Part shown: one piece after another, positions 4,781 to 59,331 of the stretch
Layout: each line of letters opens with the position of its first letter
Position numbering within the stretch: position 1 is the stretch's first letter
Source of the DNA: Actinomycetota bacterium
GTDB lineage: Bacteria > Actinomycetota > Actinomycetes > S36-B12
Assembly: GCA_017856385.1 (NCBI GenBank)
Contig: JAFMFD010000009.1
Span: forward strand, 10-64,009
DNA: 64,000 bases
Direction: 5' to 3'
Notes under the pieces: model-generated
The model's input: the letters and a program-made list of their open reading frames with translations, nothing else
Database searches by the model: none
Told to the model about the DNA's origin: nothing
Made by a program: the position numbers and the translations under genes

Positions 4781-4784
4781 CGCG

Positions 4785-19674: not shown

Positions 19675-19764
19675 CGCAGCCTCGCCCGCTCACGTCCCGA
19701 TTACCCGGGTGAGCCTACTGCCCGGCCTGAGCGGGTGCTACGGTCCGACCGTCGAAAGCGAGCC

Positions 19765-20787: not shown

Positions 20788-20789
20788 CC

Positions 20790-21692: not shown

Positions 21693-21775
21693 TCTGGATA
21701 ACTATCTGCGCAAAGTGGATAGATCCTCGGGCCCGGCTGCCCGATAGTGGCCCTCAGCACCCAGAAGGAGGAGAC

Positions 21776-22876: not shown

Positions 22877-22892
22877 GTGGTAGGCAGGTGAC

Positions 22893-42101: not shown

Positions 42102-42191
42102 GCCCTCACTCTAGTGCAGTTTCGACGATCGCCACCAAGGTGTCAGACGTCGGTGGGTACGATCGAACAGTCCGATGTGAAGGGAGTCCTC

Positions 42192-42605
42192 GTGGAGTCA
42201 CGGGTCAGGATTGTGGTCGCCAAGCCGGGGCTCGACGGCCACGACCGGGGTGCCAAGGTCATCGCCCGGACGCTGCGTGACGCGGGCTTCGAGGTCGTCT
42301 ACACCGGCCTGCGGCAGACACCGGCCCAGATCGTCGAGGCAGCACTCCAGGAGGACGCCGACCTCATCGGACTGTCGATCCTCTCCGGCGCCCACATGAC
42401 CCTCTTCGCGGAGGTGCTCGACCTCCTGCGGGAGCGCGATGCGAGCGACATTGTGGTCTTCGGGGGAGGCATCATCCCCGACGACGACATCCCGCGGCTG
42501 CTCGACATGGGGGTCGCCGCGATCTTCACCCCCGGCACGCCCACGCAGGACGTGGTGGCGTGGGTGCAGGAGCAGGCCGCGGTGTCAGCCGCCCGGCGCA
42601 CGTAG
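42192..42605 (+). CDS. cobalamin-binding small subunit of acyl-CoA mutase (B12-binding domain protein)
   Basis: GTG 42192 after [37 protein letters not shown] (DxHxxG), GLSILSG (SxL), VVFGGGIIP (GG). Confidence 0.85.
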
Positions 42606-43667: not shown

Positions 43668-44675
43668 TCAGTGCGACAGATCGTGCCGCTGCACCTTGCC
43701 GAGGATGAGCCCCTCGCGGAGCGCGTATGCCGCGGCAGCGGCTCGGTTGGGGGCTTGGATCTTGTCGAGGATGTGTTCGACATGGGTCGCCACGGTGCGA
43801 TGCGAGACCACGAGGGCCTCGCTGATCTCGTTGTTCGAAAGGCCCTCTGCGGCCAGCGTGAGCACCTCCAGCTCGCGGTGGGTCAGGGGGCCGAGGTCGA
43901 TCGAGTCCAGGCTCACCAGGGTGGTGACCGAGGCCTCGGCCGTGCACGGCAGCACCCGGACCCGGAAGAACTCGGTGTCGCCCGGCCACACGAAGGACGA
44001 CCAGGACTTCATCCGCGCGGACTTCCGGGCCACGTTCATCAGTTCTGCGTCCTCGTGGAGCAGGTCGTGCTTGGGCACCCCCGGCAGCGCGATGGCGCGG
44101 CCATGGGCGTCCAGGCCCACGGCCATCGCCGTGGACCCCAGGAGTGAGGTGACCCAGCCCCGTGAGCGCAGGGGGTCGGCCATATTGCCGAGCGCGGTGC
44201 AGAGCTGGGTCAGAACGTCCTTGGCAAGGTCGCTGGGGTGCTGCGGATCGGTCGTCGACAGGTTGATGACACCGACGAACCTGCCGTCGGACGTCCGAAG
44301 GCTCATGGTCAGGCCCTCGCGGTACCCGGCGGGCAGCAGCACGTCCGAGACGGCCCAGTTGTCGAGGGGGTCCCCAGGCAGGTCCTTCATCCGGGTGGCT
44401 CGCCCCGTCTCCGGCAGGTCGAGGAACTCCATGAGCTGGAAGAACTCCGCGCTGTGCAGGTCGTCCAGCACCTGGGGGGAATAGCCGTGCGTGGCCAGCA
44501 TCATGGGATCCCCGGTGAAGGGGTCCAGGGCGATGATCTCGGCCGCCTCGAGGGGGATGAGGGACTTGAGCTCCGCGAGGACGGCCGCGGCCCGGTCCTG
44601 GGGGGAGGCGTGGTCGGAGGCGATGGCCGCAAGTGAACCGGCTGCGCGCATGCCAACAGAGAGGTCGGTCGCCAC
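43668..44675 (-). CDS. LuxR-family transcriptional regulator with N-terminal GAF-like sensor domain
   Basis: C-terminal LTHRELEVLTLAAEGLSNNEISEALVVSHRTVATHVEHILDKIQAPNRAAAAAYA (GerE/LuxR HTH). The N-terminal ~250 aa have a GAF-like pattern. Start uncertain (GTG 44675 or ATG 44651); no obvious SD. Confidence 0.8.
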   Translation of the reverse strand: MATDLSVGMRAAGSLAAIASDHASPQDRAAAVLAELKSLIPLEAAEIIALDPFTGDPMMLATHGYSPQVLDDLHSAEFFQLMEFLDLPETGRATRMKDLPGDPLDNWAVSDVLLPAGYREGLTMSLRTSDGRFVGVINLSTTDPQHPSDLAKDVLTQLCTALGNMADPLRSRGWVTSLLGSTAMAVGLDAHGRAIALPGVPKHDLLHEDAELMNVARKSARMKSWSSFVWPGDTEFFRVRVLPCTAEASVTTLVSLDSIDLGPLTHRELEVLTLAAEGLSNNEISEALVVSHRTVATHVEHILDKIQAPNRAAAAAYALREGLILGKVQRHDLSH

Positions 44676-44836: not shown

Positions 44837-46216
44837 ATGAAGCGAACTCGACTCATGGCTGCCGCCGCTTCCGTAGCGGTGCTGTCCGTGGTCCTGAGTG
44901 CCTGCAGCTCCTCTGATTCCGGGGACGCCGCAAGCCCGGCAGCGGAGGAACCCGCCGCCGCCGAGGAACCCGCCGCGGAGGAGCCCGCCGCGGCGGAGCC
45001 TGCTGCCGAGGAGGCCGCCCCGGCCGAGGCCAGCGGCGAGCCCATCACGATCGGCCTGCCGATCGCCCAGTCCGGTCCGGCCGGCATCGCCGATCATGCC
45101 GACTGCCTGAACGGCGCGACCCTCGCGAAGGACCAGATCAATGGTGCGGGCGGTGTCAACGGGCGCCCGATCGAGTTCAGCGTCACCGACCTGGACATCC
45201 TCACGCCCGAGGGCATCACGGCCGGCTTCCAGAAGCTGACCGGCGAGGGTGTTGCTGCCCTCGTCAGCCCCTTCGTGATCATCCCTCCGGCCGCCCTTGA
45301 GGTGGCTGCCACGTACGGCGCGCCGTACATGAGCGGTGACACCAACGTGGACGTGCAGGTCATGCGCGCCTCGGATCCTGCCAAGTACGGCAACTACTTC
45401 GTCGATCCGCCGGAGACGTACTACGGCTCCGGATTCGTCACCTTCCTCACCAACCTTGCTGACTCGGGCTCGTGGACGCCGAAGAACAACAAGGTCGACA
45501 TCATCCGCGGCGACACGGCCTACAACCAGAACATCGCCGCTGCCACCGTCGAGGCCATCGAGGCATCGGGCGGCAAGTGGGAGCTCGGTGAGATCATCGA
45601 CATCACGGCCGGTACGAAGGACTGGTCGCCCGTGCTGCAGAAGCTGGCCGCCAACGATCCCGGTGTGATCATGGTCGATCACTGGATCGGCGCCGAGCTC
45701 GCGTCGTTCTCGCAGCAGTTCGCTGCGGATCCGGTCCCCGGCTCGCTGGTCTACCTCCAGTACGGCCCGTCCCAGCCGGAGTACCTCGACATCGCGGGTG
45801 ACTCCGCGGAGGGCTTCGTGTGGGGCACCGTGATCGGCACCGGCAACACCAGCGCCGAGGACAAGGCCTTCCGCGAGGCCTACCACGCAGCAACGGGCAC
45901 GGACGATGTCACGATGGGCATGGTCTACCCCGCCTGGTGCTACGACATGGTCAACGTGCTTGCTCAGGCGTGGGCCAACACCGATCCTGCGGATTTCGCG
46001 GCGGTCAACCAGTACATCGCATCCACCCCGTACCAGGGCGTGACGGGCTACATCGACTTCGCGAATGGGGTCACCCCCAGCTACCCGAACGATGTCGCCA
46101 GCGCGGCCGAGGGTGTGACGCACTACTTCTACCAGGTTCAGGATGGTCGCCACACGGTCATTGAGCCTGCGGATGATGCCGAGGCACCATTCACCCCGGC
46201 ACCGTGGATGCAGTAG
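44837..46216 (+). CDS. ABC transporter substrate-binding lipoprotein, type-1 PBP (Liv/amide-urea binding family)
   Basis: Lipobox VLSAC, A/E/P acidic linker, ITIGLPIAQSGPAGIADHADCLNGATLAKDQINGAGGVNGRPIEF. GGAGG SD. Confidence 0.85.
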   Translation: MKRTRLMAAAASVAVLSVVLSACSSSDSGDAASPAAEEPAAAEEPAAEEPAAAEPAAEEAAPAEASGEPITIGLPIAQSGPAGIADHADCLNGATLAKDQINGAGGVNGRPIEFSVTDLDILTPEGITAGFQKLTGEGVAALVSPFVIIPPAALEVAATYGAPYMSGDTNVDVQVMRASDPAKYGNYFVDPPETYYGSGFVTFLTNLADSGSWTPKNNKVDIIRGDTAYNQNIAAATVEAIEASGGKWELGEIIDITAGTKDWSPVLQKLAANDPGVIMVDHWIGAELASFSQQFAADPVPGSLVYLQYGPSQPEYLDIAGDSAEGFVWGTVIGTGNTSAEDKAFREAYHAATGTDDVTMGMVYPAWCYDMVNVLAQAWANTDPADFAAVNQYIASTPYQGVTGYIDFANGVTPSYPNDVASAAEGVTHYFYQVQDGRHTVIEPADDAEAPFTPAPWMQ

Positions 46217-46236: not shown

Positions 46237-46968
46237 ATGGCACTGCTGTCCTGCTCGGAGATCACCCTTGATCTCGGCGGTCGCCGCATCCTCGAGGGTG
46301 TGTCTCTCGAGGTGGAGCAGGCGGAGGTTGTAGGTCTTGCCGGCCCCAATGGGGCCGGCAAGACCAGCCTCTTCGAGGTCCTCTCCGGGCGCCAGCTGCG
46401 ACACGGTGGGGACGTCGTCTTCGACGGCGAGTCCGTCGCGAAGCTGCCGATGCGCGAGCGGGTCCAGCGGGGGCTGGTCCGCAGCTACCAGCGCCCGATC
46501 GTCCCCGCAGGCCTGACGGTCGGTGAGACGCTCAATGCGGCGCGCAAGGCCTACAGGGCCTATCCGTCCCGGCTCAAGGTGGAGTGGGCGACGGAGTTCG
46601 TCCACATGCGCGTGCCGCTCGACCAGCCCACCGGCTCACTGGAGACCCTCGAGCGGCGCAAGCTGATGCTGGCCTGCCTGCTACTTCGCTCGCCGCGGAT
46701 CGTCCTGCTCGACGAGCCCGCCTCGGGGCTGACCGGGTCGGAGATCGACGAGATCGACCTGATCGTTCGCCGACTGTCCCAGGAGTACGGCATGGCGGTG
46801 CTGCTCATCGAGCACCGGCTCGAGCTGCTTGCGATGGTCGCCTCACGCGTTCTCGTCCTCGATGTGGGCCGGGTCATCGCGGAGGGGCATCCCGAGCGCG
46901 TCTTCCGCGAGCCCGACGTCCGGGCTGCCTACTTCGACGTGCCCATCACCGGGGACGTGGTGGCCTGA
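46237..46968 (+). CDS. ABC transporter ATP-binding protein (LivG-like)
   Basis: GPNGAGKTS Walker A, LLDEPASGL Walker B. Confidence 0.85.
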   Translation: MALLSCSEITLDLGGRRILEGVSLEVEQAEVVGLAGPNGAGKTSLFEVLSGRQLRHGGDVVFDGESVAKLPMRERVQRGLVRSYQRPIVPAGLTVGETLNAARKAYRAYPSRLKVEWATEFVHMRVPLDQPTGSLETLERRKLMLACLLLRSPRIVLLDEPASGLTGSEIDEIDLIVRRLSQEYGMAVLLIEHRLELLAMVASRVLVLDVGRVIAEGHPERVFREPDVRAAYFDVPITGDVVA

Positions 46969-47690
46969 TGGCGATCCTCCAGATCGAGGGACTGTCGGCC
47001 GGTTACGGCCCGGTGCGCGTCCTGCACGACCTCAACCTCACCGTCAACCCGGGCGAGCGACTCGGCCTCGTCGGGCTCAACGGGCACGGCAAGACCACGT
47101 TCCTCAGCGCCATCGTCGGCCTGACCGGCTGGCAGGACGGGTCGATCCTGTTCCGTGGTGAGCAGATCGGCGGTCGGCGCACGCACGGTATGGGACGCAA
47201 GACCCCGCACATCGTGCGGCAGGGGATCGCCCTCGCCCCGCAGGGCGATGCGATCTTCCCCGGACTGTCGGTCAAGGACAACATCGACGCGGGGGCCTAC
47301 TCCGGAGCCACGTGGCGGTCACGCCGCAAGCGTCGGGAGCGGATCCTCGAGGTGTTCCCCCCGCTGGCGCCCCTGCTGCGGCAGACCGCGGGCACGCTCT
47401 CCGGAGGCGAGCGGCGGATGGTCAGCGTGGGCCGGGCGCTGATGTCCGACGCCTCGCTGTACCTGGTCGATGAGCCGTCGCTGGGCCTGGCCCCGAAGAT
47501 CTCTCTCGGCCTCGTGGCCGCCCTGTGCGAGATCGACCTCGGTGATGGAGCCATGATCATCGCGGAGCAGAACCTGCCGTTGATCGAGGGCCGAGTCGAC
47601 CGCGTTCTCGGCATGCATGCGGGGGAACTCAAGCTCGATGTCGGTGAGGCTCTGGGCGACGTCCCTCCCGCAGCGGAGGTGCATCTGTGA
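46968..47690 (+). CDS. ABC transporter ATP-binding protein (LivF-like)
   Basis: ATG 46968 shares one nt with the preceding TGA. GLNGHGKTT, LSGGERRMVSVGRAL, LVDEPSLGL. Confidence 0.85.
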   Translation: MAILQIEGLSAGYGPVRVLHDLNLTVNPGERLGLVGLNGHGKTTFLSAIVGLTGWQDGSILFRGEQIGGRRTHGMGRKTPHIVRQGIALAPQGDAIFPGLSVKDNIDAGAYSGATWRSRRKRRERILEVFPPLAPLLRQTAGTLSGGERRMVSVGRALMSDASLYLVDEPSLGLAPKISLGLVAALCEIDLGDGAMIIAEQNLPLIEGRVDRVLGMHAGELKLDVGEALGDVPPAAEVHL

Positions 47691-48580
47691 TCGAGGTCCT
47701 GATCAGTGCTCTGGTGCTCGCGTCCATATACGGCCTCGTGGCCATCGGCATCTCCTTCACATGGGCAAGCATCGGCATGCTCAACCTCGCGCAGGGCTTC
47801 ATCTTCACCGCGGGCGGCTACACCGCCTGGCTCTACGCGCAGTACGCCGAGGGCTGGGGCCTGGAAGGTGCGGTCCTTTCGGTCGGGGTCCTCGTGTTCG
47901 GGATGCTCGGCTCGGCGCTGGCAGGGCTCTTCGTCGGGGCCATTGCCTTCCTGCCCCTGCAGGACCGCGACAACTTCCGCACGCGCAGCCTGATCGCGAC
48001 GCTGGCGATCTCGCTCGTCGGCACCCAGGTGTGGCTGATCCTCTTCGGCCCGCAGAACAAGCCCCTGCCACCCGTCTTCGGCGAGGGGCGACTCGAGATC
48101 GGCTCGGCCGGGATCTCCTACCAGCAGGTCGGCACGATCATCGTGGCCTCGCTGATGCTCGCCCTCGTCATCCTGTGGATGCGCAGCAGCCGGCGTGGGC
48201 TCCAGATGCGCGCGATGATGATGAACCCGCTGGGCGCTGCGGTCGTCGGCGTGTCCGTGCGGAGTACGGGCATGCGGGTGCTCGCCATCAGCGGTGCGCT
48301 CACCGGACTGTCGTCGGTTCTGCTCGCCCAGGTCTTCTTCGTCAGCCCCACCTCCGGCGTCCAGCCCTTGACCACCGGCCTGATCATCTCGCTCGCGGGT
48401 GGCCTTGGCTCGATCCCGGGAACGGTCATCGCGGCAGGCGTGATCGGCCTGGCTGAGGCGCTCACGGCCCGGTACCTCCAGCAGTCGCTGGTGCCCTTCG
48501 TGCTCTTCGCGATCGTCGTCGTGATCCTCATCTTCCGGCCACGCGGCCTCGGTGGCCTGCTGGAGGACGTCCGTGAGTAA
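47687..48580 (+). CDS. ABC permease (LivH-like)
   Basis: 297-aa polytopic protein. NLAQGFIFTAGGY motif. GTGA overlap with the ATPase gene. Confidence 0.85.
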   Translation: MIEVLISALVLASIYGLVAIGISFTWASIGMLNLAQGFIFTAGGYTAWLYAQYAEGWGLEGAVLSVGVLVFGMLGSALAGLFVGAIAFLPLQDRDNFRTRSLIATLAISLVGTQVWLILFGPQNKPLPPVFGEGRLEIGSAGISYQQVGTIIVASLMLALVILWMRSSRRGLQMRAMMMNPLGAAVVGVSVRSTGMRVLAISGALTGLSSVLLAQVFFVSPTSGVQPLTTGLIISLAGGLGSIPGTVIAAGVIGLAEALTARYLQQSLVPFVLFAIVVVILIFRPRGLGGLLEDVRE

Positions 48581-50099
48581 CAGTCCACGCCTTGTCGGGC
48601 GCCGCGCCTACCGACCGCACTGGCCGGTCAACTCCGCACGGGTGTTCAAGCGCCGCAGGTGGCCCGGCACGAAGCGATCTGTCCTCAAGCTCTCCGGCCG
48701 GTACAACCCCAAGACCCTGCGCCGCGAGATGGTGCTCACCGACAAGAAGCCGATGTTCTGGTCGGTCGGCCTCGCGGCCCTCCTGCTGCTGCCGATGGGA
48801 GTGGCGTCGGAGCGCTTCTTCACGATGTTCGGGATCATCTGCATCTACGCGGCCATCAACGTGATGTGGACCCTGATCATCGGCACGGCGGGCCTGCAGT
48901 CCTTCGCCACGCTGGCCACCGTCGGCGTGGGTGCCTACGGCGCCGGCTACCTGAGCGTGACGTATGGCCTGCCCTGGCCCTTCATGCTCCTCGTCGGAGC
49001 GGTGCTCGGCGGACTCCTCGGCTGGATCATCTCGCTGCCTGCGCGACGCCTTGATGGCCTCTACTACGCACTCCTCACGCTCGGACTGTCCGAGTTCATG
49101 CGCAACTTCGTCACACAGTCCGACGAGCTCGGTGGAAAGTTCAATGGAGCGCTGTTCGGCGTGGGAAGGATCATCCCTGCGGACCTGCTGACGTCTCGCC
49201 TGGGGCAGTCACTGCTCTACCTCACCGCCTTCATTGCGCTGCTGATCGCGCTTGTCGTGTACCGCTGGGTCAATGGGGGACGCACCGGGCTCCTCCTCCG
49301 GGCTGCAGCGACCTCCAAGGAGGACGAGGCGTTCTCGTCGGCCCTGGGCATCGACTTCAACAAGGAGCGGACGCGCGTCTTCATCATCGCCTCGGCCGTC
49401 CTGGGATTCCTGGGGGCGTTCTACGCCACGTACATCGGCGGCACGTCGCTGCAGATCTTCAGTCTCGAGCTGCTGCTCCTCCTGCTCGCGATGATCGTGA
49501 TCGGCGGGCTCGGGCGGGCTGAGGGGGCCGTCGTCGGCACGGTCATCGTGGTCGGGATCACCCAGTGGTTCACCGACTGGGGACCTTGGCGCATCGTGCT
49601 GGTGGGCGTCCTGGCCCTGGCCTCCGTGCTCTTCACCCGCAACGGCCTGTTCGGGCTCAAGGCCCAGATTGAGGAGATCCGGGACAGGCGCAAGGCGCTC
49701 CACCGGGCGGGCATCACGAGCAGATTTGCGGAGTACCTTCCTCAGCAGGCGCCCGAGGTGCACGACAAATCCGAGATCGTCGGTCGGGTGTTCGAGCGGT
49801 CCCTGCGCGAGCGGCTGCGCTCGTGGATCAGTCCTGAACTGCTGGCGGAGCACGAGGCCAAGCCGCTCGGCCAGCACTCCGACCGGCTCGAGCGGATGCT
49901 CAACTACTTCCGCAAGGCACCTATCCCCGACAAGTACGTGGTGTACTGCGAGGTCCCGTTCGAGTCGTACCGCGTGGTGGCGCTCAGCGGCCTTCCTGGT
50001 GTGCCGCCGCGCATCGTCGACGACAAGAAGTACGCGACCCTGGACGAGGCCTACCACGCCGTCTTCCTGCGCCGCGTCAACGATCTCAGAGCAAACTGA
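48573..50099 (+). CDS. ABC permease (LivM-like) with ~145-aa hydrophilic C-terminal extension
   Basis: TM core from ...MFWSVGLAALLLLPMGV to ...LASVLFTRNGLFGLK. A charged soluble tail follows (IEEIRDRRKALHRAG...YVVYCEVPFESYRVVALSGLPGVPPRIVDDKKYATLDEAYHAVFLRRVNDLRAN) in the same frame with no intervening stop. Start GTG 48573 is provisional. Confidence 0.75.
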   Translation: MSNSPRLVGRRAYRPHWPVNSARVFKRRRWPGTKRSVLKLSGRYNPKTLRREMVLTDKKPMFWSVGLAALLLLPMGVASERFFTMFGIICIYAAINVMWTLIIGTAGLQSFATLATVGVGAYGAGYLSVTYGLPWPFMLLVGAVLGGLLGWIISLPARRLDGLYYALLTLGLSEFMRNFVTQSDELGGKFNGALFGVGRIIPADLLTSRLGQSLLYLTAFIALLIALVVYRWVNGGRTGLLLRAAATSKEDEAFSSALGIDFNKERTRVFIIASAVLGFLGAFYATYIGGTSLQIFSLELLLLLLAMIVIGGLGRAEGAVVGTVIVVGITQWFTDWGPWRIVLVGVLALASVLFTRNGLFGLKAQIEEIRDRRKALHRAGITSRFAEYLPQQAPEVHDKSEIVGRVFERSLRERLRSWISPELLAEHEAKPLGQHSDRLERMLNYFRKAPIPDKYVVYCEVPFESYRVVALSGLPGVPPRIVDDKKYATLDEAYHAVFLRRVNDLRAN

Positions 50100-50114
50100 G
50101 CGATCGGAGAGACA

Positions 50115-52412
50115 ATGGCCAAGATCGCCCTCACCGGGTACACCGACAAGATCAGTGTGGCTCCTGGTGAATCCATCGACGTCAAGGTGAGCGCCGACAA
50201 TGCCACGACGGCGCACGTCGAGATCGTGCGCCTGATCCACGGTGACGAGCACCCGGACGGCCCCGGATTCCTCGAGGAGCTCGTCGTCGCTGACTGCGCT
50301 GGCGACCACGCCGTACGCAAGCAGTTCGTGGACGTGGGCAACGCGGTCGTCGTGGCGGATCCGTCGAACCGGCTCGTCGGCGACGGCCCCATGACCCTGT
50401 GGGCCTATGTCTTCCCCACGACTCCGGCCAAGGGCAGGCAGGTGATCCTCGGGCGCTTCGCGCTCCAGGAGAACGCCGGGTACGCCCTGGGCATCGACGG
50501 CCAGGGCCGGCTGGCCTTCTGGGCCGGGGACGGCTCGGACACCGACGAGGTCGTCTCGCCGGTCCCGCTGATCCACCACACGTGGTACCTCGTCGCGGCC
50601 TCCTTCGACCCTCGGTCGGGTCAGGCGGCGCTGCTCCAGCAGGCGGTGGTGAACCCGTACAACGGGCGCCTGGGCAAGGTTGCGCCGTTCGACCACTACT
50701 CGCTCGTTGAGCAGAAGCTGCGGATCAGGCCCGCGGCACCCTCGTCACCGTTCATGTGGGGTGCAGCACAGAACTCCGCGCCTGTGCGCGGGGTGTTCAA
50801 GGAGTTCCTCTACAACGGCAAGATCGATCGGGCCGGCGTGATCGGTGCAGCCCTGACGGTGGACGACCTGCGACGACTCGCGGACGGTGCCGTCACTGCC
50901 CCGGAGATCGCCCGATGGGACACGACGGCGGGGTACGGCGAGTCCGGAATCGACGACGTCGTGCGTGATATCTCGGGCAATGGCCTGGACGGTGTCGGCA
51001 TCCAGCGGCCGGTCCGCGCGATGACGGGCTACAACTGGAGCGGCAGGCATGACGACTGGCGGGTGGCGCCCGAGGAGTACGGAGGCATCGCCTTCCACGA
51101 CGACGCGGTCATCGACTGTGAGTGGGATACGACGTTCACGTGGCAGGTACCGGTGGGCACGCGCAGCGGTGCCTATGCGGCTCGGGTGACTGCGGGGGAT
51201 GCCGAGGACCACATCCCCTTCTTCGTCCGCCCCGCCGCGCCGACGGCTCCGATCCTGTACCTGATGCCCACGAACTCCTATCTCGCCTACGCGAACGAGA
51301 TGATCGTCCACCACGTGCCGGTGGGGCAGGCGATCCTGTCGCACCCGGCGGTGCTCACCGAGGCCGAGGCGGACTACTACCAGGATCCGCGCTTCGGGCG
51401 GTCCACGTACGACCACCACTCCGACGGCGCGGGCGTGTGCTTCACGTCATGGAATCGGCCGATCCTGAACATGCGGCCCAAATGGCGCTCCTCAGCCATC
51501 GGCACCGTGTGGCAGTTCCCGCGGGACCTCTCGCTCATCGCCTGGCTGGAGAAGAAGGGCTACGCCTACGACGTGGCCACCGACCACGACCTCTCGCGCG
51601 ACGGGATCGACCTGCTGAAGTCCTACTCAGTGGTGCTCACCGGCTCGCACCCGGAGTACTGGAGCGAGGGAAGCCTGAACGCCCTGGAGGACTACGTCGC
51701 CGACGGAGGCCGGCTGATGTACCTCGGCGGCAACGGCTTCTACTGGGTCATCTCCTACCGCGACGGGGAGCCGCAGGTCATGGAGGTGCGCAAGGGCGAG
51801 GCCGGCATGCGTGCATGGCAGGCCGAGCCGGGGGAGTACTACCACCAGACCTCGGCCGAGCGCGGTGGCATCTGGCGCAACCGCGCGCGTCCGCCCCAGA
51901 AGCTGACGGGGGTGGGCTTCACCACGCAGGGGTTCGACGAGTGCCATCCGTACCGGCGGATGCCCGACAGCTACCACAAGTCGGTGGCCTGGATCTTCGA
52001 CGGTGTTGAAGGAGAGGTCTTCGGTGACTTCGGCCTGGCCCTCGGGGGAGCGGCCGGACTGGAGACCGAGCGCTACGACCTCGAGCTGGGGACGCCTCCG
52101 CACACCAAACTGCTGGCGTCGTCGACGTCGTGGTCAGACAACTACGCCAGCGTCCACGAGGACATCCTCTTCAACCACCCGGGCACCCTGGGGACGCAGA
52201 GTCCCTCGGTGCGCGCCGACATGACCTACTTCACGACCGCGAATGATGGTGCGGCGTTCTCCACCGGATCGATCGCCTGGATCAGTGCACTGCCGTGCTT
52301 CGACTTCGAGAACAACTGCTCACGCATCATGTCCAACGTGCTCGACGCATTCATCAAGCCGGGCGCCCTGCCGGGTGGTGCGTGGGATCAGGACGAGAAG
52401 TCCTGGACATAG
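50115..52412 (+). CDS. N,N-dimethylformamidase beta (large) subunit family protein with N-terminal LamG/concanavalin-like domain
   Basis: GGAGAG SD. N-terminal LWAYVFPTTPAKGRQVILGRF...GYALGIDGQGRLAFW...HTWYLVAASFDP (LamG-like). C-terminal VVLTGSHPEYWSEGSLNALEDYVADGGRLMYLGGNGFYWVISY, which I recognise as the DMFase-large-subunit C-terminal domain signature. The call is from memory of the family, not a search. Confidence 0.65.
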   Translation: MAKIALTGYTDKISVAPGESIDVKVSADNATTAHVEIVRLIHGDEHPDGPGFLEELVVADCAGDHAVRKQFVDVGNAVVVADPSNRLVGDGPMTLWAYVFPTTPAKGRQVILGRFALQENAGYALGIDGQGRLAFWAGDGSDTDEVVSPVPLIHHTWYLVAASFDPRSGQAALLQQAVVNPYNGRLGKVAPFDHYSLVEQKLRIRPAAPSSPFMWGAAQNSAPVRGVFKEFLYNGKIDRAGVIGAALTVDDLRRLADGAVTAPEIARWDTTAGYGESGIDDVVRDISGNGLDGVGIQRPVRAMTGYNWSGRHDDWRVAPEEYGGIAFHDDAVIDCEWDTTFTWQVPVGTRSGAYAARVTAGDAEDHIPFFVRPAAPTAPILYLMPTNSYLAYANEMIVHHVPVGQAILSHPAVLTEAEADYYQDPRFGRSTYDHHSDGAGVCFTSWNRPILNMRPKWRSSAIGTVWQFPRDLSLIAWLEKKGYAYDVATDHDLSRDGIDLLKSYSVVLTGSHPEYWSEGSLNALEDYVADGGRLMYLGGNGFYWVISYRDGEPQVMEVRKGEAGMRAWQAEPGEYYHQTSAERGGIWRNRARPPQKLTGVGFTTQGFDECHPYRRMPDSYHKSVAWIFDGVEGEVFGDFGLALGGAAGLETERYDLELGTPPHTKLLASSTSWSDNYASVHEDILFNHPGTLGTQSPSVRADMTYFTTANDGAAFSTGSIAWISALPCFDFENNCSRIMSNVLDAFIKPGALPGGAWDQDEKSWT

Positions 52413-52421
52413 GGGGTGCAC

Positions 52422-53525
52422 ATGGCAACCGGATACGTCTGGCATGAGCTGTACGGCTGGCACGACACCAGTTCGCATGCTGGCCTGCTGCCCCCCAGTC
52501 TCGTCCTGCAGCCCTATCACCACTTCGAGTCGCCGGAGTCGAAGCAGCGCTTCCACTCCCTGCTCGAGGTCTGCGGACTGATCGACCATCTGACGCGCAT
52601 CCAGCCCAAGCAGGCCAGTGACGAGGACATCCTGCGGATCCACACCCCGGAGCACCTCGCGAGGATCAAGGCCGAGAGCGCGACCCTGAAGGGAGGCGAC
52701 GCCGGCGATGGCACCTCCCCCTTCGGACCCCAGGGCTTCGAGATCGCGGCGCTGGCCGCGGGGGGCGCGATCGCGGGACTGAACGCGGTGCTAGCGGGCG
52801 ACGTGACCAACGCCTACGCGCTCGTGCGCCCGCCGGGGCACCACGCCCGACCGGAGACGGGGATGGGCTTCTGCATCTTCGCCAATGCCGCGATTGCCAT
52901 CGCCCAGGCCAAGGCCGCGAACCCCGACCTGCGGGTAGCGACGGTCGACTGGGACGTCCACCACGGCAATGGCACGCAGGCCGCCTTCTACGACGACCCC
53001 ACCGTCCTGACGATCTCGCTGCACCAGGACGACCTGTTCCCGCGGAACAGCGGTGCCATCGAGGAGCGGGGGGAGGGTGAGGGACTCGGCTACGCCATCA
53101 ACATTCCCCTGCCCGCCGGCACCGGCAACGAGGGCTACGCCTACGCGATGCAGACCGTCGTGGTCCCGGCTCTTCGCAGGTTCTCCCCGGACGTCATCGT
53201 GGTTCCGTCGGGGTTTGATGCCAGCTGCTTCGATCCCCTCGGCCGGATGTCGGTCACCGCATCGGGCTACCGGGTCATGACGCGCCAGCTCATGGACGTG
53301 GCCGAGGAGGTGTGCTCTGGACGGATCATGATGACCCACGAGGGCGGCTACTCTCCGACCTACGTCCCGCTCTGCGGGGTCACCGTCCTCAGTGAGATGT
53401 CCGGAGTGCCCGTCGACGTGATCCACGAACTGTATGCGTCCTTCGACACCATGCCGGAGCAGACGCTCAACGACTACCAGCGGTCCGCGGTGGACCGCGC
53501 TGCGGCGGCTGTGTCCTTCGCATGA
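52422..53525 (+). CDS. class II histone-deacetylase-like Zn amidohydrolase (acetylpolyamine/acetoin-utilisation AcuC family)
   Basis: RPPGHHA (His-His dyad), DWDVHHGNGTQ (Asp/His Zn ligands), PSGFDAS (Asp ligand), HEGGYS (catalytic Tyr). All are intact. Confidence 0.85.
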   Translation: MATGYVWHELYGWHDTSSHAGLLPPSLVLQPYHHFESPESKQRFHSLLEVCGLIDHLTRIQPKQASDEDILRIHTPEHLARIKAESATLKGGDAGDGTSPFGPQGFEIAALAAGGAIAGLNAVLAGDVTNAYALVRPPGHHARPETGMGFCIFANAAIAIAQAKAANPDLRVATVDWDVHHGNGTQAAFYDDPTVLTISLHQDDLFPRNSGAIEERGEGEGLGYAINIPLPAGTGNEGYAYAMQTVVVPALRRFSPDVIVVPSGFDASCFDPLGRMSVTASGYRVMTRQLMDVAEEVCSGRIMMTHEGGYSPTYVPLCGVTVLSEMSGVPVDVIHELYASFDTMPEQTLNDYQRSAVDRAAAAVSFA

Positions 53526-55141
53526 CCACTTCACCGTCGACGCGGATCGAGAACGCGACCGTCTGGACGGGCCATCGCCTGCCCGACGGTCGTGTGGAGA
53601 CCACGGACGCCCTGCTCATGCGAGACGGCCGGGTGGTCGCGCTGGGCGCAGCCGCGCGGGCCATGGATGCCGACGAGGTCGTCGACGCGCACGGTGGCTT
53701 CGTCGCCCCGGCCTTCGGCGACGGCCATGTCCACCCGATCTTCGGCGGCCTCGAGCAGCAGTTCGCAGCGGTCCGAGAGGGCACGTCGGTGGAGGAGATC
53801 GCGGCTGCCGTCGGCCGGTGGGCCCACGAGCACCCGGATGCGGAGTGGATCCGCGGCGAGGGGTTCGACCCCACGCTGGCCCCGGGTGGGGTCTTCCGCG
53901 CCGAGTGGCTCGATGCTCAGGTGCCGGACCGGCCGGTGGTCCTGCGTGCCACCGACTACCACACCGTGTGGGTGAACTCCGAGGCTCTGCGCCGTTCGGG
54001 CTACGGCAGGGGAGTCGTCCAGCCGCATGACGGTGAGATCGTGCTCGACGACGACGGTGCGCCCAACGGCACGCTGCGGGAGTGGGGTGCGTGGCGGCCC
54101 GTGTACGCACTTCTTCCCGCCGTCCCGACGGAGCAGGTCGCGGCTGCGATCGACTTCGCGACGTCGTCCTTCGCCCAGGCAGGCCTGACGTGGATCCAGG
54201 ATGCGTGGGTGGAGTCAGCGGACGTCACCGCGTGGCTCGACGCTCTCGACGCCGGAGCGGTGCACGTCGATGTGGACCTCGCGCAGTGGGCGGACCCGAA
54301 CACCTGGCGTGACCAGCTGGCCGGCTTCGTGGATGCCCGCCGGCTCGTCGACGCGCGCGGAGGAGGCCGCATCACGGCGCACACCGTGAAGTTCTTCGCC
54401 GACGGCGTCATCGAGTCGGCGACGGGAGCGCTCATCGAGCCGTACTGCGACTGCCCCCACTCGCGCGGGATCCCCAACTGGGATCCGGAGGAGTTGAAGC
54501 TCGCCGTCGCCGCGGTCGACGCCCACGGCTTCACGCCCCACCTCCATGCCATCGGTGACCAGGCGATCCGCAATGCGCTCGACGCCATGGAGCATGCTGC
54601 CCGCGTCAATGGGCCCCGTGATCGCCGCTGGACCATCTGCCACGTGCAGCTCGTCGATCCCGCCGACATCCCACGCTTCGCCGAACTGGGTGTCATCGCC
54701 AACTTCGAGCCCTACTGGTCGAAGTTCGACTCCTGGCAGAGCGAGCTCAACACCGCTCGACTGGGCGAGGAGCGCCTCAACCGGCAGTTCCAGACCGCGA
54801 CACTCGCGCGGTCCGGAGCACGGATCTCCTTCGGCAGCGACTGGCCCGTGACGACCTACGCCCCGCTCGAGGGCATCCAGGTGGCCGTGACGCGCAAGGT
54901 GAGTCCGGACGAGCCGGCGTGGATGCCGGATGAGCGCATCAGCGTGGACGACGCCCTCGCCGCATACACGTCGGGCGTGGCCTTCCAGGCGGGTCGGGAT
55001 GACGCGGGTGTGCTGAGGCCGGGTGCGGTCGCTGACGTGGTCTGGCTGGGCGCGGACCCGCACACGGTGGATCCGATGCGGATCGGCGGAATCCAGGTAC
55101 TCGGCACCTGGCGCGCCGGCGAGCCGGTCTACCGGCGCTAG
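53522..55141 (+). CDS. amidohydrolase family protein (Amidohydro_3 / YtcJ-like metal-dependent hydrolase)
   Basis: GGFVAPAFGDGHVHPIFGG (HxH), ...HLHAIGDQA..., ...ICHVQL..., ...SFGSDWPV (Asp). ATGA overlap with the HDAC-like gene. Confidence 0.8.
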   Translation: MTTSPSTRIENATVWTGHRLPDGRVETTDALLMRDGRVVALGAAARAMDADEVVDAHGGFVAPAFGDGHVHPIFGGLEQQFAAVREGTSVEEIAAAVGRWAHEHPDAEWIRGEGFDPTLAPGGVFRAEWLDAQVPDRPVVLRATDYHTVWVNSEALRRSGYGRGVVQPHDGEIVLDDDGAPNGTLREWGAWRPVYALLPAVPTEQVAAAIDFATSSFAQAGLTWIQDAWVESADVTAWLDALDAGAVHVDVDLAQWADPNTWRDQLAGFVDARRLVDARGGGRITAHTVKFFADGVIESATGALIEPYCDCPHSRGIPNWDPEELKLAVAAVDAHGFTPHLHAIGDQAIRNALDAMEHAARVNGPRDRRWTICHVQLVDPADIPRFAELGVIANFEPYWSKFDSWQSELNTARLGEERLNRQFQTATLARSGARISFGSDWPVTTYAPLEGIQVAVTRKVSPDEPAWMPDERISVDDALAAYTSGVAFQAGRDDAGVLRPGAVADVVWLGADPHTVDPMRIGGIQVLGTWRAGEPVYRR

Positions 55142-56019
55142 GCCATGACCGCGGAGACCGCGCGCACGTGATCTGCGGTCGACCCGCAGCAGGCACCGAT
55201 CATGTCAATGCCGGCGTCGCGCATATCGGAAGCGAACTCCGCCATCTCCTCGGGGGTTCCGGTGTACACGAACTCGCCGCCCACCAACTGAGGCAGTCCG
55301 GCGTTGGACTGCACGAGGATGCGGATCCCGGTGGGTCGGGTCTCCAGCAGGCCGGCGGCGATGATGCGCATCTCGTCGACGCCGCGGCCGCAGTTGGCAC
55401 CCACGACGTCGGCACCCATGGCGGAGATCTGCTGGGCGGCGGACTGCGGGGTGACCCCCATCATCGTGCGCAGGTTGGTGTCGAAGGACATCGTCGCGAA
55501 GATCGGCAGGCCCGGCGCCGTCCGCTGCGCTGCGGTGATGGCGGCCTGCACCTCGGCAAGGTCGCTCATGGTCTCGATGAGGATTCCGTCGACCCCACCG
55601 TCGACGAGCCCGGCGATCTGCTCGCTGAACAGCGCGATGGCGTCATCCTCGGTCAGGGTCCCGAGCGGCGCCATGAGGTCACCGGACGGCCCGATGTCGC
55701 CGAGGACGAAGCATCCCTCGTAGCGGTCGGCGACCGCGCGTGCCACCCGCGCGCCGGCGGCATTGAGCTCGTGCACGCGGTCCTCGAGGCCATGCATGGC
55801 CAGGCGCGGGCGGGAACCGCCGAACGTGTTCGTGGTCAGCAAGTGTGCGCCGGCCGCCGCGTACTCCTCGAGCACCTGCGACACGACGTCAGGGCGGTCG
55901 ACATTCCACAGCTCGGGTGCACCACCGTCGTCCAGGCCCACCAGCTGGAGCCGCGTCCCCATGGATCCGTCGCCGACCCGGATGCGCCCCTCGTCCAGCG
56001 CCGCTCGCAGCGTGCTCAC
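55138..56019 (-). CDS. homocysteine S-methyltransferase-domain protein (stand-alone Zn thiol methyltransferase, MetH N-terminal module-like)
   Basis: GTG 56019 after GGAGGTG. DGSMGTRL...LLTTNTFG...ILIETMSDL...VGANCGRG (Cys) ...IGACCGST (Cys-Cys) gives a complete Zn site. 293 aa with no pterin or B12 modules. Confidence 0.8.
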   Translation of the reverse strand: MSTLRAALDEGRIRVGDGSMGTRLQLVGLDDGGAPELWNVDRPDVVSQVLEEYAAAGAHLLTTNTFGGSRPRLAMHGLEDRVHELNAAGARVARAVADRYEGCFVLGDIGPSGDLMAPLGTLTEDDAIALFSEQIAGLVDGGVDGILIETMSDLAEVQAAITAAQRTAPGLPIFATMSFDTNLRTMMGVTPQSAAQQISAMGADVVGANCGRGVDEMRIIAAGLLETRPTGIRILVQSNAGLPQLVGGEFVYTGTPEEMAEFASDMRDAGIDMIGACCGSTADHVRAVSAVMA

Positions 56020-56315
56020 CTGCCACCTCCGTAGTCGCTGACGTGCTCGTCGAGGCGCTCTTGGTCCCACTCGTCCTCCAGCGCCTGCGCCAGAGTAGCC
56101 GCGGCCTCGGCCGGGGTGCCCTCGGCGGCGACCCAGGGATCGCGGGCCCACCCGGCGAGGTAGGCATCGGCGTCGGTCTCGCCGGCACGCATCGCGGCCT
56201 CGTCGATGGCCTCCTGAAAGCGCGCGGGCAGGGGGATCTTGACCACCTCGTCACCGTCCCTGGCGGTGACCATCGAAGGGATGCCCTGCCATCGGGTCAG
56301 CTGGACCTCGGTCAT
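56016..56315 (-). CDS. small 'virulence factor'-family protein (conserved WQGIPS motif), function unknown
   Basis: MTEVQLTRWQGIPSMVTARDGDEVVKIPLPARFQEAIDEAA... 4-nt overlaps with both neighbours. Confidence 0.6.
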   Translation of the reverse strand: MTEVQLTRWQGIPSMVTARDGDEVVKIPLPARFQEAIDEAAMRAGETDADAYLAGWARDPWVAAEGTPAEAAATLAQALEDEWDQERLDEHVSDYGGGR

Positions 56316-56521
56316 GCTCGTCCCTCCATGATCGCGAGGGCCTCATGCACCTCGGCGGACAGTTCATCCTGGTGCTCATACGCGTACGCACGCAGGGCGG
56401 CGATCATCGACGGCGCCCAGAAGCTCGTCAGGTGGGCAGCGGTCTGCTGTGATGCATGCGCCCGATCGGGGACGTTGGCCGCGATCTGATTCGCCATGAC
56501 GACCATGCGCTCGGTCATCAT
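56312..56521 (-). CDS. fdsD: formate dehydrogenase subunit delta
   Basis: 69 aa. MVVMANQIAANVP...AAHLTSFWAPSMIAAL matches the FdsD pattern (VxMANQI...HLxxFWxPxM). ATGA coupled. Confidence 0.7.
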   Translation of the reverse strand: MMTERMVVMANQIAANVPDRAHASQQTAAHLTSFWAPSMIAALRAYAYEHQDELSAEVHEALAIMEGRA

Positions 56522-59331
56522 GACAGGGCATCCACCCCAGCATGCTCACGTGCGGCCATCGCAGGTCGCGAGTCTGGGCGGACCTCCACCGCCGTCACCT
56601 TGTACTCCGGGCAGTTGGTGGCCCAGTCGGAGTTCTCGGTGGTCACGATGTTCGCACCGCTCACCGGGTAGTGGAAGGTCGTGTAGACCACGCCGGCCGG
56701 GATGTCCTCGGTCAGGCGGACTCGCAGGGTCGTGCGTCCGGCGCGGCTGGTGACCTCGGCCCAGGTGCCGTCGGCGATGCCCCGCGGCTCAGCATCCGCC
56801 GGATGCATGTCGAGGACGTCCTCCTGGTGCCAGGTCCTGTTGGCTGTGCGCCGCGTCTGCGCGCCGACGTTGTACTGGCTGAGGATCCGGCCCGTTGTCA
56901 GCAGCAGCGGGAATCGCCGGTTGCTGCGCTCGCTCGTCGGCACGTAGGGGGTAGTCACGAACGTCCCGAGGCCCTTGACGAAGTGGTCGACATGCATGAT
57001 CGGGGTGCCGAGGGGTGCGGCCTCGTTGCACGGCCACTGAACGCTGCCGACCCGGTCGAGGAGGTCGAAGCTGACGCCCGCGAAGGTGGGCGTGATCGCG
57101 GCGATTTCATCCATGATCTGCGACGCGTCGTCGTAGCCCATCGGGTAGCCGAGGGCGGTGGCCAGCTCGCATGCGACCTCCCACTCGGCCCGGCCGGTCT
57201 GGGAGGGCATCACCGGCCGGACGCGGTTGATCCGCCGCTCGGCATTGGTGAAGGTGCCGTCCTTCTCCAGGAAGCTCGTGCCCGGGAGGAAGACGTGCGC
57301 GAACGCCGCCGTCTCGTTCAGGAAGAGGTCCTGCACGATGACGCACTCCATCGACCGCAGCGCGTCCTTGACGTGCTCGGTGTTGGGATCGGACTGCGCG
57401 ATGTCCTCGCCCTGGATGAAGATCCCTTTGAACTCCCCGACGGTCGCCGCGTCGAGCATGTTCGGGATGCGCAGGCCCGGGTCGGGCCGCAGTGCCGTTC
57501 CCCACAGGGTCTCGAACTGCTCCCGGACGGTCGTGTCGGAGACGTGCCGGTAGCCGGAGAACTCGTGCGGGAAGGAGCCCATGTCGCACGAGCCCTGCAC
57601 GTTGTTCTGCCCGCGGAGCGGATTGACTCCCACGCCGCGGCGGCCGATGTTCCCGGTGGCCATGGCGAGGTTCGCCATGGCCATCACCATCGTGGAGCCC
57701 TGGCTGTGCTCGGTGACGCCGAGGCCGTAGTAGATCGCGGCATTGCCCGCGGTCGCATAGCGACGGGCTGCGCGGCGGACGGCCTCGGCCGGGACGCCCG
57801 TCTCGGGCTCGAGGGCCTCCGGGCTGTTCTCCGGCAGGCGGATGAAGGACTCCCACGCGGCGAACGACACCGGGTCGCAGCGCTCAGCGACGAAGTCGCG
57901 GTCGATGAGCCCCTCGTCGGCGATGACGTGGGCCATGGCGTTGACGACGGCGACGTTCGTTCCGGGGCGCAGCTGCAGGTGCTCCTCGGCGTGGATGTGG
58001 GGGCTCTCGACGAGGGCGATCCTGCGTGGGTCGATGACGATGAGCCCGGCGCCCTCGCGGATACGGCGCTTCATCCGGGAGGCGAACACCGGGTGGGCGT
58101 CGGTGGGGTTGGCGCCGATGACGACGATGACGTCGGCCTCGGCTACAGACGCGAAGTCCTGGGTGCCAGCGGAGGTGCCGAACGTCTGCTTGAGCCCGTA
58201 GCCGGTGGGGGAGTGGCACACCCGGGCGCAGGTGTCGACATTGTTGTTGCCGAAGGCCGCCCGGATCATCTTCTGGACGACGAACACCTCCTCGTTGGTG
58301 CACCGGGAGGAGGTGATGCCGCCGACGGAGTCCGTGCCGTGGCGCGCCTGGAGGTCCCGGATGCGCGTCGCGGCGAACGCGATGGCCTCCTCCCAGGACA
58401 CCTCGCGCCAGTCGTGGCTGATGTCCTCGCGGATCATCGGCGCCGTGATGCGGTCGGCGTGCGTCGCGTAGCCCCAGGCGAAGCGTCCCTTGACGCACGA
58501 GTGGCCCGCGTTGGCGCCACCCTCCTTGGCAGGCACCATGCGCACGAGTTCGTTGCCGCGCATCTCGGCGTTGAACGAGCAGCCCACGCCGCAGTACGCG
58601 CAGGTGGTCTTGACCACGCGGGTCGGGATCCCGATGTCGATGACGGACTTCTCCTGCAGGGTCGCCGTGGGGCAGGCCTGGACGCAGGCACCACAGGAGA
58701 CGCACTCGCTGCTCATGAAGGGCTCGTCGGCCGACGCGCTGACCTTCGAGCCGAAGCCACGTCCGCTGATGGTCAGGGCGAAGGTGCCCTGGATCTCGTC
58801 GCAGGCCCGCACGCAGCGGCTGCAGGCGATGCACTTGCTGGCGTCGAAGGTGAAGTAGGGGTTGCTCTCGTCCTTGGGTGCTGCGAGGTGGTTCTCGCCG
58901 TCGTAGCCGTACCGGACGTCGCGCAGGCCGACCACCCCGGCCATGTCCTGCAGCTCGCAGTCGCCGTTGGCCGGGCAGGTGAGGCAGTCGAGCGGGTGGT
59001 CGGAGATGTAGAGCTCCATGACGCCCCGGCGGATCCGCGCGACGTGCGCAGTCTGCGTATGGACGACCATGCCCTCGGCGCAGGGAGTGGTGCACGAGGC
59101 GGGCGTCCCGGGGCGTCCGTCGATCTGGACGACGCACAGCCGGCAGGATCCGAACGCCTCCAGGGAGTCGGTGGCGCACAGCTTCGGGACCGATGTTCCG
59201 GCGAGTGCTGCGGCACGCATGACAGACGTGCCCGCAGGCACCTCCACTGCGATGCCGTCGATGGTGACGGTCACGCACTGGTCGGACTCGACGGCAGGCG
59301 TCCCGAGATCGGGTTCATGCAGTGCGGTCAT
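56518..59331 (-). CDS. fdsA: NAD-dependent formate dehydrogenase alpha subunit (Mo/W-bisPGD, 2Fe-2S + 4Fe-4S N-terminal domains)
   Basis: ATG 59331 gives MTALHEPDL...VTIDGIAVEVPAGTSVMRAA...FGSCRLCVV (2Fe-2S), CIACSRCVRAC / CVSCGACVQACP (4Fe-4S), CAYCGVGC, GHSCVKGRF, SSRCTNEE, active-site CARVCHSPT (Cys, no in-frame TGA). The upstream 113 codons of the ORF are rejected. Confidence 0.9.
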   Translation of the reverse strand: MTALHEPDLGTPAVESDQCVTVTIDGIAVEVPAGTSVMRAAALAGTSVPKLCATDSLEAFGSCRLCVVQIDGRPGTPASCTTPCAEGMVVHTQTAHVARIRRGVMELYISDHPLDCLTCPANGDCELQDMAGVVGLRDVRYGYDGENHLAAPKDESNPYFTFDASKCIACSRCVRACDEIQGTFALTISGRGFGSKVSASADEPFMSSECVSCGACVQACPTATLQEKSVIDIGIPTRVVKTTCAYCGVGCSFNAEMRGNELVRMVPAKEGGANAGHSCVKGRFAWGYATHADRITAPMIREDISHDWREVSWEEAIAFAATRIRDLQARHGTDSVGGITSSRCTNEEVFVVQKMIRAAFGNNNVDTCARVCHSPTGYGLKQTFGTSAGTQDFASVAEADVIVVIGANPTDAHPVFASRMKRRIREGAGLIVIDPRRIALVESPHIHAEEHLQLRPGTNVAVVNAMAHVIADEGLIDRDFVAERCDPVSFAAWESFIRLPENSPEALEPETGVPAEAVRRAARRYATAGNAAIYYGLGVTEHSQGSTMVMAMANLAMATGNIGRRGVGVNPLRGQNNVQGSCDMGSFPHEFSGYRHVSDTTVREQFETLWGTALRPDPGLRIPNMLDAATVGEFKGIFIQGEDIAQSDPNTEHVKDALRSMECVIVQDLFLNETAAFAHVFLPGTSFLEKDGTFTNAERRINRVRPVMPSQTGRAEWEVACELATALGYPMGYDDASQIMDEIAAITPTFAGVSFDLLDRVGSVQWPCNEAAPLGTPIMHVDHFVKGLGTFVTTPYVPTSERSNRRFPLLLTTGRILSQYNVGAQTRRTANRTWHQEDVLDMHPADAEPRGIADGTWAEVTSRAGRTTLRVRLTEDIPAGVVYTTFHYPVSGANIVTTENSDWATNCPEYKVTAVEVRPDSRPAMAAREHAGVDALS

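Follow-up and report, generated by a model that had tools for sequence, protein, structure and literature searches.

A stretch of 64,000 nucleotides from an uncultured freshwater actinobacterium (contig JAFMFD010000009.1 of assembly GCA_017856385.1; hereafter the window, in whose coordinates positions are given unless a locus is named) carries an importer operon in which a permease gene is followed directly by a homologue of the large subunit of dimethylformamidase (DMFase). DMFase, an enzyme of two subunits, is known for its action on a man-made solvent; what it does in nature and where it came from are still being asked (PMC7686228). In the window, which has a GC content of ~69%, the small (α) subunit is encoded as the C-terminal domain of the permease, and the large (β) subunit as a separate protein. 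We hold with very high confidence that the permease tail is homologous to the DMFase small subunit and that the fusion is real. We further consider it likely that the DMFase-like hydrolase is attached to its own importer, on the cytoplasmic side. The elements of the fusion and of the gene behind it are as follows.

48552-49634, + strand: LivM-type permease part of the fusion (Pfam BPD_transp_2, residues 96-356)
49635-49766, + strand: connector of the fusion, a basic helix and an acidic linker (AlphaFold; homologous codons in Proteobacteria)
49767-50099, + strand: DMFase small-subunit domain (α; PF26354, DMF_alpha), permease residues 406-515 and the TGA stop (match to 6lvb_B; fold)
50106-50111, + strand: GGAGAG, the Shine-Dalgarno sequence for β, immediately behind the stop codon of the permease (read from the sequence)
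50115-52412, + strand: DMFase large-subunit (β) homologue, 765 residues (match to 6lvb_A; Pfam DMFA2_C and Laminin_G_3)

Permease tail and large subunit

The permease gene stops with a TGA at 50097-50099, 15 nucleotides before the ATG of the large-subunit gene. An earlier note on this DNA had reported that a free-standing small-subunit gene is lacking, and this is correct for the whole window: there is no open reading frame (ORF) between the permease and large-subunit genes, and a tblastn search of the 64 kb with 23 small-subunit sequences returned a single small-subunit match, at 49659-50096, inside the permease ORF. A second, free small-subunit gene in the window is thereby ruled out.

The same note had suggested that the permease tail might take the role of the small subunit. 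At the level of homology this proposal is now strongly supported by sequence, predicted fold, PF26354 annotation and the occurrence of the fusion across phyla. Using the last 199 residues of the permease as a query, phmmer identified the DMFase small subunit 6lvb_B (E = 3.9e-14; residues 41-129 of 132). An AlphaFold model of the last 146 residues, built from a 22-sequence alignment with a predicted local distance difference test score (pLDDT) of 86, comprises two short helices and a small sheet between a long N-terminal and a long C-terminal helix, which is also the fold of the small subunit in Paracoccus sp. strain DMF DMFase (PDB: 6LVB, 6LVC, 6LVV; PMC7686228). Foldseek aligned this model with 6lvv_B/6lvb_B (E = 1e-8, TM-score 0.80, root-mean-square deviation 1.8 Å, 116 columns); at E ≤ 0.001 it returned no PDB chain other than the DMFase small subunit, the next match having an E value of 0.4. 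The full-length AlphaFold model (55-sequence alignment, pLDDT 82) gave the same small-subunit match over 125 of 125 columns. PF26354 is a precomputed annotation on all database homologues of the tail, and it was in these annotations that we saw it; our local Pfam scan of the fusion protein showed BPD_transp_2 only. A tail-less LivM paralogue encoded elsewhere in the window (12846-13907) stops about a dozen residues past its last membrane helix, so the tail of ~150 residues is best described as an add-on.

The β ORF starts with ATG, has a GC content at third codon positions (GC3) of 0.89 and is preceded, 5 nucleotides upstream, by a GGAG Shine-Dalgarno core. Its earlier description as DMFase-large-subunit-like is fully borne out: in a phmmer search of the PDB, residues 2-752 aligned with residues 2-759 of the Paracoccus DMFase large subunit 6lvb_A (E = 6e-203, ~45% identity). 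The second-best match, also over the full length, is N-acetyl-(R)-β-phenylalanine acylase (PDB: 8HUY, 8I59, 8I5A; E = 9e-115). This enzyme belongs to the same large-subunit superfamily, which thus includes hydrolases of amides other than dimethylformamide, but it is far more distant than DMFase, is deposited as one protein species and has no link to a transporter. Pfam assigns to the window protein a DMFA2_C domain (3e-99) and a Laminin_G_3 domain at residues 84-171, which scores 30.3 bits where 27.6 are required, in keeping with the three-domain layout of DMFase (Ig-like, pentraxin and catalytic DMFA2_C). The N-terminal LamG-like module to which the note had drawn attention is therefore a genuine match, but nothing special to this protein, as it corresponds to domain II, of pentraxin fold, in the published Paracoccus structure (PMC7686228), and all DMFases have this domain. 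No second large-subunit copy was detected by tblastn in the window, and NCBIfam has no model for the large subunit or for the histone-deacetylase-like amidohydrolase (HDAH) encoded behind it.

In the Paracoccus enzyme, iron is bound by Y399, Y440 and E521, catalysis involves H519, N547 and E657, and F693 lines the pocket (PMC7686228). All seven published sites are kept in the window protein, as Y392, Y432 and E514 (iron), H512, N540 and E650 (catalysis) and F686 (pocket), and the positions of Y399, Y440, H519, E521, N547 and E657 are invariant across 68 aligned large subunits. Two tyrosines and one glutamate had been given in the note as the metal ligands, correctly so. It had also named three findings that would speak against its reading, namely loss of the ligands, grouping with a non-hydrolase branch, or a required small-subunit gene elsewhere; in fact, no ligand is missing, the relatives with which the protein clusters are DMFases that depend on a small subunit, and nowhere else in the window is such a subunit encoded.

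Judged by its sequence, the enzyme has every hallmark of a DMFase except a free small subunit. Like the Paracoccus enzyme it has two components, with the small-subunit sequence immediately upstream of the large subunit, and a large subunit that aligns end to end, has three domains and shares all active-site residues. It differs in that the small subunit is not a free soluble protein of ~15 kDa but a domain that continues in frame from LivM, with no stop, through a 44-residue connector; in that the unit sits inside an importer operon; and in its host, which is not a solvent-degrading isolate. In a neighbour-joining tree, which is rough and is not relied on for the number of fusion or fission events, Paracoccus DMFase groups with free-small-subunit relatives and not with the fused clades.

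Architecture, spread and origin of the fusion

The fusion protein starts at a GTG at 48552 or 48573, the latter being the start called for a 99%-identical protein (P0121). Residues 1-65 form a basic N-terminal extension (27% Lys + Arg across the family), and the first 67 residues of the window protein hold 19 Lys or Arg. According to the AlphaFold model, ~10 transmembrane helices span residues 66-361; they are followed by a post-membrane basic helix (residues 362-388, 31% Lys + Arg), an acidic linker of low confidence (residues 389-405) and the α domain (residues 406-515). Across 55 fused proteins, some with as little as 48% identity, the connector is invariably 27 plus 17 residues long, and in this set α is the best-conserved region, with a mean identity of 65% to the window protein. 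By fold, the membrane part resembles the membrane domains of type II ABC importers (BtuC, HI1471, PsaC, HmuU). NCBIfam gives weak matches to UrtC/LivM. Both termini of type II importer membrane domains are cytoplasmic. Given this fold and the positive-inside pattern, the tail is predicted to face the cytoplasm, where the large subunit, which lacks a signal peptide, would also be located.

The N-terminal extension (48552-48746) occurs in all fused permeases, with invariant G16, R34, R36, L56, E59 and K65 and weakly predicted β strands; the LivM paralogue without a tail lacks it. It may provide a second cytoplasmic contact for the enzyme or for the ATPases.

Contigs from four independent public runs of aquatic or freshwater metagenomes span positions 49300-50700 with no indel and no stop, and their substitutions are all sense. 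To assess the spread of the arrangement, we scanned one genome per species and classed the resulting 80 loci by tblastn and ORF analysis. The permease and α share a frame without a stop, with the large subunit a few nucleotides downstream, at 48 of the 80 loci; at 29 there is a free small-subunit gene with no such permease upstream, two are cut by a contig end, and one, from Bradyrhizobium betae P42, is split into two overlapping genes. The fused loci belong to metagenome-assembled genomes (MAGs) of Actinomycetota, mostly labelled Nanopelagicales (the nearest are 95% identical in the tail), to Hyphomicrobiales (Rhodopseudomonas, Bradyrhizobium, Hoeflea and others), and also to a Parasphingorhabdus, to Burkholderiales and to a Gemmatimonadales MAG. 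Rhodopseudomonas telluris KCTC 23279 and Bradyrhizobium aeschynomenes 83002 (L043, L047) are carriers that exist in culture. The order binding protein, two ATPases, LivH, LivM::α and β is syntenic in all of them. A search with the whole fusion protein identified at least 120 clusters of 505-520 residues that bear both PF26354 and PF02653; in the databases these are named merely “branched-chain amino acid transport system permease” or “ABC transporter permease subunit”.

The α-domain family as a whole is small: in a set of 1.84 billion representatives it accounts for 583 clusters at 50% identity, mostly free proteins of 110-135 residues. Many free small subunits of ~120 residues bear the JGI name “branched-chain amino acid transport system permease protein”, probably a systematic mis-annotation carried over from the fused permeases. 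One metagenomic protein (P0351, 891 residues, one cluster) joins the same α domain (residues 6-123) to the N-terminus of a β homologue with the same catalytic motifs, and not to a permease; this third architecture, beside the free and the permease-borne forms, is an independent indication that α and β act together.

Several candidate arrangements were examined and set aside. Long open frames upstream of the “free” α genes at five loci (L059, L062, L068, L071, L082) proved to be wrong-frame translations of high-GC DNA. At a Sphingomonadales UBA6157 locus (L078), the upstream ORF at 4537-6054 of that locus is a separate amidase-signature gene with a GGSSGGS motif, which ends just before the free α-β pair and is not a fused partner; it is a further instance of the enzyme occurring beside another amidase. 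In the window, the permease and β ORFs lie in the same frame, separated by the TGA and 15 nucleotides; stop-codon read-through joining the tail to β was rejected, as the spacer in relatives (gaps of 3-18) is not conserved modulo 3. The split Bradyrhizobium betae locus (L049, on the P42 chromosome; positions 5990-6020 of the locus) has a permease ending in EKGVR before its stop and an α gene starting GTGATG, with an overlap of 4 nucleotides. It is one base away from its fused relatives and reflects either natural fission or a sequencing error.

Traces of how the fusion came about are preserved in the connector. All 24 fused proteobacterial and Gemmatimonadales loci, as well as the split Bradyrhizobium locus, encode K-G-G-E-(V/P)-(M/V/L) at the point where free small-subunit genes start. 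The underlying codons read AAAGG(G/A)GG, then 6-7 nucleotides, then ATG, GTG or TTG, that is, a Shine-Dalgarno sequence and a start codon in frame, at a position identical to that of the genuine ribosome-binding site of free α genes at two loci (L051, L053). The persistence of these signals as codons in Proteobacteria shows that the fusion evidently arose by loss of the livM stop, with read-through into a once-separate α gene downstream. Proteobacteria might still make free α as well, and these in-frame signals speak for an alternative in which the fusion is merely genetic: α would be released by internal initiation or by cleavage of the connector, and the enzyme would be a soluble α2β2 assembly as in Paracoccus. 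The separate, overlapping genes of Bradyrhizobium betae P42, the nesting of free α genes inside a fused clade in the rough neighbour-joining tree and the predicted disorder of the linker also fit such a release.

The actinobacterial loci argue otherwise. The window and all its actinobacterial relatives encode A-E-(F/Y)-L at this point, as GCGGAGTWC followed by CTN or by TTG/TTA, the latter in members of lower GC content; among 33 actinobacterial loci, the codon at the start position is CTN in 24 and TTG/TTA in nine. No Shine-Dalgarno sequence of the AAAGG(G/A)GG type precedes this leucine codon in the actinobacterial loci, and no conserved alternative start lies nearby: the GTG at 49758 in the window connector is ATC or ATT in relatives. 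What the window retains is a degenerate remnant of the old ribosome-binding site and start, GCGGAGTAC CTT. An internal start for free α in the window can be rejected, the homologous position having neither a start codon nor a Shine-Dalgarno sequence. Since both signals are gone, the fusion is, to judge by these codons, obligate in the actinobacterial clade of the window, where α can be made only as part of the permease. An invariant connector length is, moreover, unexpected of a mere spacer or cleavage loop, and lineages as far apart as Actinomycetota and Proteobacteria have remained without the stop. We therefore regard a soluble enzyme with released α as unlikely, although it is the best supported of the alternatives to a hydrolase held at its importer.

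Operon context and a candidate importer-bound hydrolase

The fusion and β genes lie within a longer operon, with a divergent gene on one side and genes of formate metabolism on the other.

43668-44675, - strand: divergent LuxR-family regulator with a GAF-like N-terminal domain (Pfam GerE, weak GAF matches)
44837-46216, + strand: ABC-importer substrate-binding lipoprotein (Pfam Peripla_BP_6; signal peptide, lipobox LSAC, Pro/Ala/Glu-rich tether)
46237-46968, + strand: ABC ATPase 1 (position; syntenic homologues, with PF00005 on the matching gene of the related loci L001 and L002)
46965-47690, + strand: ABC ATPase 2, with an ATGA overlap with ATPase 1 (Pfam ABC_tran; syntenic in relatives)
47687-48580, + strand: LivH-type permease, 297 residues, without extension (PF02653 on the L001 homologue; synteny)
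52416-53525, + strand: HDAH-type amidohydrolase, co-operonic (Pfam Hist_deacetyl)
53522-55141, + strand: Amidohydro_3 metal-dependent hydrolase, co-operonic (Pfam Amidohydro_3)
56312-61284, - strand: NAD-linked formate dehydrogenase fdsGBAD (Pfam FdsD, Molybdopterin, Complex1_51K, 2Fe-2S_thioredx)
62084-63748, - strand: formate-tetrahydrofolate (formate-THF) ligase (Pfam FTHFS)

The importer set of the HAAT type (Liv/Urt-like) is complete in this one operon, with a Peripla_BP_6 protein, two BPD_transp_2 permeases and two ABC ATPases, as identified by Pfam, by gene-family marks on L001 and L002 and by synteny. The LuxR-family gene, likely the regulator of the operon, is syntenic and divergently oriented upstream of the module in actinobacterial relatives. 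All fused loci have the binding-protein gene in a syntenic position, with 45-52% identity in the proteobacterial ones, and the best solved relative of the protein is 3h5l_A (E = 2e-50), an unliganded structural-genomics entry. The HDAH-type protein matches the HDAH structure 1zz0_A (E = 1e-108), with propanil and dimethoate hydrolases also close; its gene lies directly behind the large subunit in most actinobacterial relatives, while the Amidohydro_3 gene is present only in the nearest ones (L005, L006, L021, L023). Operon fragments that include the tail and β are present in two freshwater metatranscriptomes, which is weak evidence that the operon is expressed.

Behind its lipobox LSAC, the binding lipoprotein has a low-complexity tether rich in Pro, Ala and Glu (44900-45030), AAEEPAAAEEPAAEEP. 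One metatranscriptome contig skips 63 nucleotides of it (44957-45021), which suggests that the tether is length-polymorphic between strains.

Based on these features, we propose a mechanism in which a five-component importer (lipoprotein, two ATPases, LivH and LivM) would carry α on the cytoplasmic C-terminus of LivM. The β subunit, translated from its own ribosome-binding site 15 nucleotides downstream, would then bind the tethered α, and an active iron hydrolase would form only when docked on the cytoplasmic face of the importer. As only LivM carries the tail, a β2 dimer would bridge two transporter complexes. Where the imported amide leaves the transporter, it would be cleaved hydrolytically into an amine and formate, and the formate could pass to the adjacent formate dehydrogenase or formate-THF ligase. 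In a stricter version, the hydrolase would be competent only on the importer, the permease-borne α would complete the entry tunnel of β, the amide would pass straight from the translocation pathway to the active site, and β2 would cross-link two transporters into a fixed supercomplex; we offer this version tentatively and hold it to be possible but doubtful. If true, importer and enzyme would together be a hard-wired metabolon with a wide occurrence in freshwater plankton, and the arrangement would indicate what an otherwise “xenobiotic” DMFase family acts on in nature.

We take a small N-substituted formamide, or a related amide, to be the probable substrate. This assignment is based on catalytic and pocket residues that are those of DMFase, on the preference of the Paracoccus enzyme for formamides (PMC7686228), on the two further amidohydrolases in the operon (HDAH-type and Amidohydro_3) and on the proximity of fdsGBAD and the formate-THF ligase. 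Reading the substrate off the binding protein proved unproductive, its only close solved relative being the unliganded entry.

A number of points weigh against an importer-bound hydrolase of this kind. The docking of β on the tethered α, and its activity there, are inferred. With one α per LivH/LivM pair and an α2β2 enzyme, two transporters would be required per enzyme dimer. Free-standing and split forms exist in related clades, and tethering is not required for the enzyme family. A PDB sequence search with the permease part gave no match, and the topology is likewise inferred. The adjacency of formate dehydrogenase is seen in the window only, with none in the 6-kb flanks of relatives, and the binding protein is without a characterised close relative in the PDB or NCBIfam, 3h5l_A being unliganded.

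Known transporters with extra cytoplasmic domains offer partial parallels to the fusion and to the idea of a transport metabolon. MetNI (C2 domain), ModBC and MalK have accessory C-terminal domains on the ATPase, which bind effectors and are not enzyme subunits, whereas in SulP-carbonic anhydrase fusions a secondary carrier is joined to a whole enzyme. There are also operons that pair an importer of the HAAT family (Liv/Urt/Fmd-type), the family of the window transporter, with a cytoplasmic amide or urea hydrolase; to our knowledge, transporter and enzyme are separate proteins in these operons, while in the window the permease itself contains, covalently joined, an essential subunit of the enzyme. 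The regulatory domains of MetNI, ModBC and MalK make it conceivable that the tethered α-β unit mainly regulates the transporter, with uptake coupled to or gated by enzyme occupancy or product level, and that substrate hand-over is not its main purpose. The fixed geometry of the connector would suit such a role, yet those regulatory domains sit on the ATPase and not on the permease, and the catalytic site of the large subunit is complete. Cooperativity between subunits, reported for the Paracoccus enzyme (PMC7686228), would likewise be in keeping with regulation. As an explanation in place of catalysis on the transporter, we consider regulation decidedly unlikely; it is compatible with such catalysis and would add to it.

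The earlier note had also allowed that the enzyme might work without a small subunit, which is unlikely, and the corresponding explanation, a large subunit that works alone beside a tail left over from a decayed small-subunit gene, is very improbable. Relatives such as N-acetyl-(R)-β-phenylalanine acylase have indeed been deposited without a small subunit, and a survey of DMFase genes found small-subunit genes in only 41 of 952 genomes with large-subunit homologues (bioRxiv 10.1101/2021.03.18.435917). A vestige would not be expected, however, to be the most conserved region of the protein, with many invariant residues, to be free of frameshifts and stops at 48 loci and to give a confident AlphaFold model; in Paracoccus, the large subunit has no activity by itself (PMC7686228). 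That the fusion is an artefact of assembly or sequencing (a lost stop or a frameshift), a concern with an uncultured organism whose sequence is present in aquatic and freshwater metagenome runs only, has a negligible probability and can be ruled out by the identical junction in the four independent runs and by the conservation of the fusion, which is shared by dozens of independent genomes and by more than 120 protein clusters.

A hydrolase held at its importer through the permease would have consequences beyond this locus. With an essential enzyme subunit covalently built into the permease of an ABC importer, and a connector whose length does not vary from phylum to phylum, the arrangement is an unusual example of a transporter-enzyme supercomplex, and one open to testing; each fused system has its own substrate-binding protein, which offers a route to the natural substrate of the family. 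Some of the small subunits that appear to be missing are hidden in genes annotated only as branched-chain amino-acid permeases, and surveys of free genes may therefore undercount complete enzymes. As abundant freshwater Actinomycetota are among the carriers and operon fragments occur in lake metatranscriptomes, the system may matter for the turnover of small amides in lakes. The co-occurrence of PF26354 and PF02653 is already in precomputed Pfam annotations, but we found no description of it as a biological feature, and the permease fusion is unmentioned in the DMFase structure paper (PMC7686228), in the DMFase gene survey (bioRxiv 10.1101/2021.03.18.435917) and in our full-text literature search.

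Other genes in the window

A betaine-homocysteine-S-methyltransferase-like gene lies at 55138-56521 (- strand; 281 bits, below the NCBIfam cut-off of 338). Downstream of the formate dehydrogenase genes, the order is this methyltransferase-like gene, then a small PF13769 “Virulence_fact” gene, then fdsD. A second complete Liv-type importer operon (9230-13907, + strand) encodes a binding protein, two ATPases, LivH and the LivM without a tail.

The large subunit of a methylmalonyl-CoA-mutase-family enzyme (37569-39062, + strand) and a separate B12-binding small subunit (42114-42605, + strand) are encoded 3 kb apart, with a PaaX-like regulator, two FMN reductase genes and an AraC regulator in between; an AMP-binding ligase (36029-37579) lies just upstream of the large-subunit gene. 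Two long ORFs at 953-3112 and 42732-43652 (both + strand) have coding-like GC3 values (0.85 and 0.88, respectively) and are without a Pfam match. A catabolic cluster at 18562-23507 comprises a bicupin dioxygenase, a CN_hydrolase, an FAA-hydrolase-family enzyme, a luciferase-like monooxygenase and a flavin reductase. Its CN_hydrolase (19735-20787) resembles aliphatic amidases and formamidases and is another possible amide-handling enzyme in the region.

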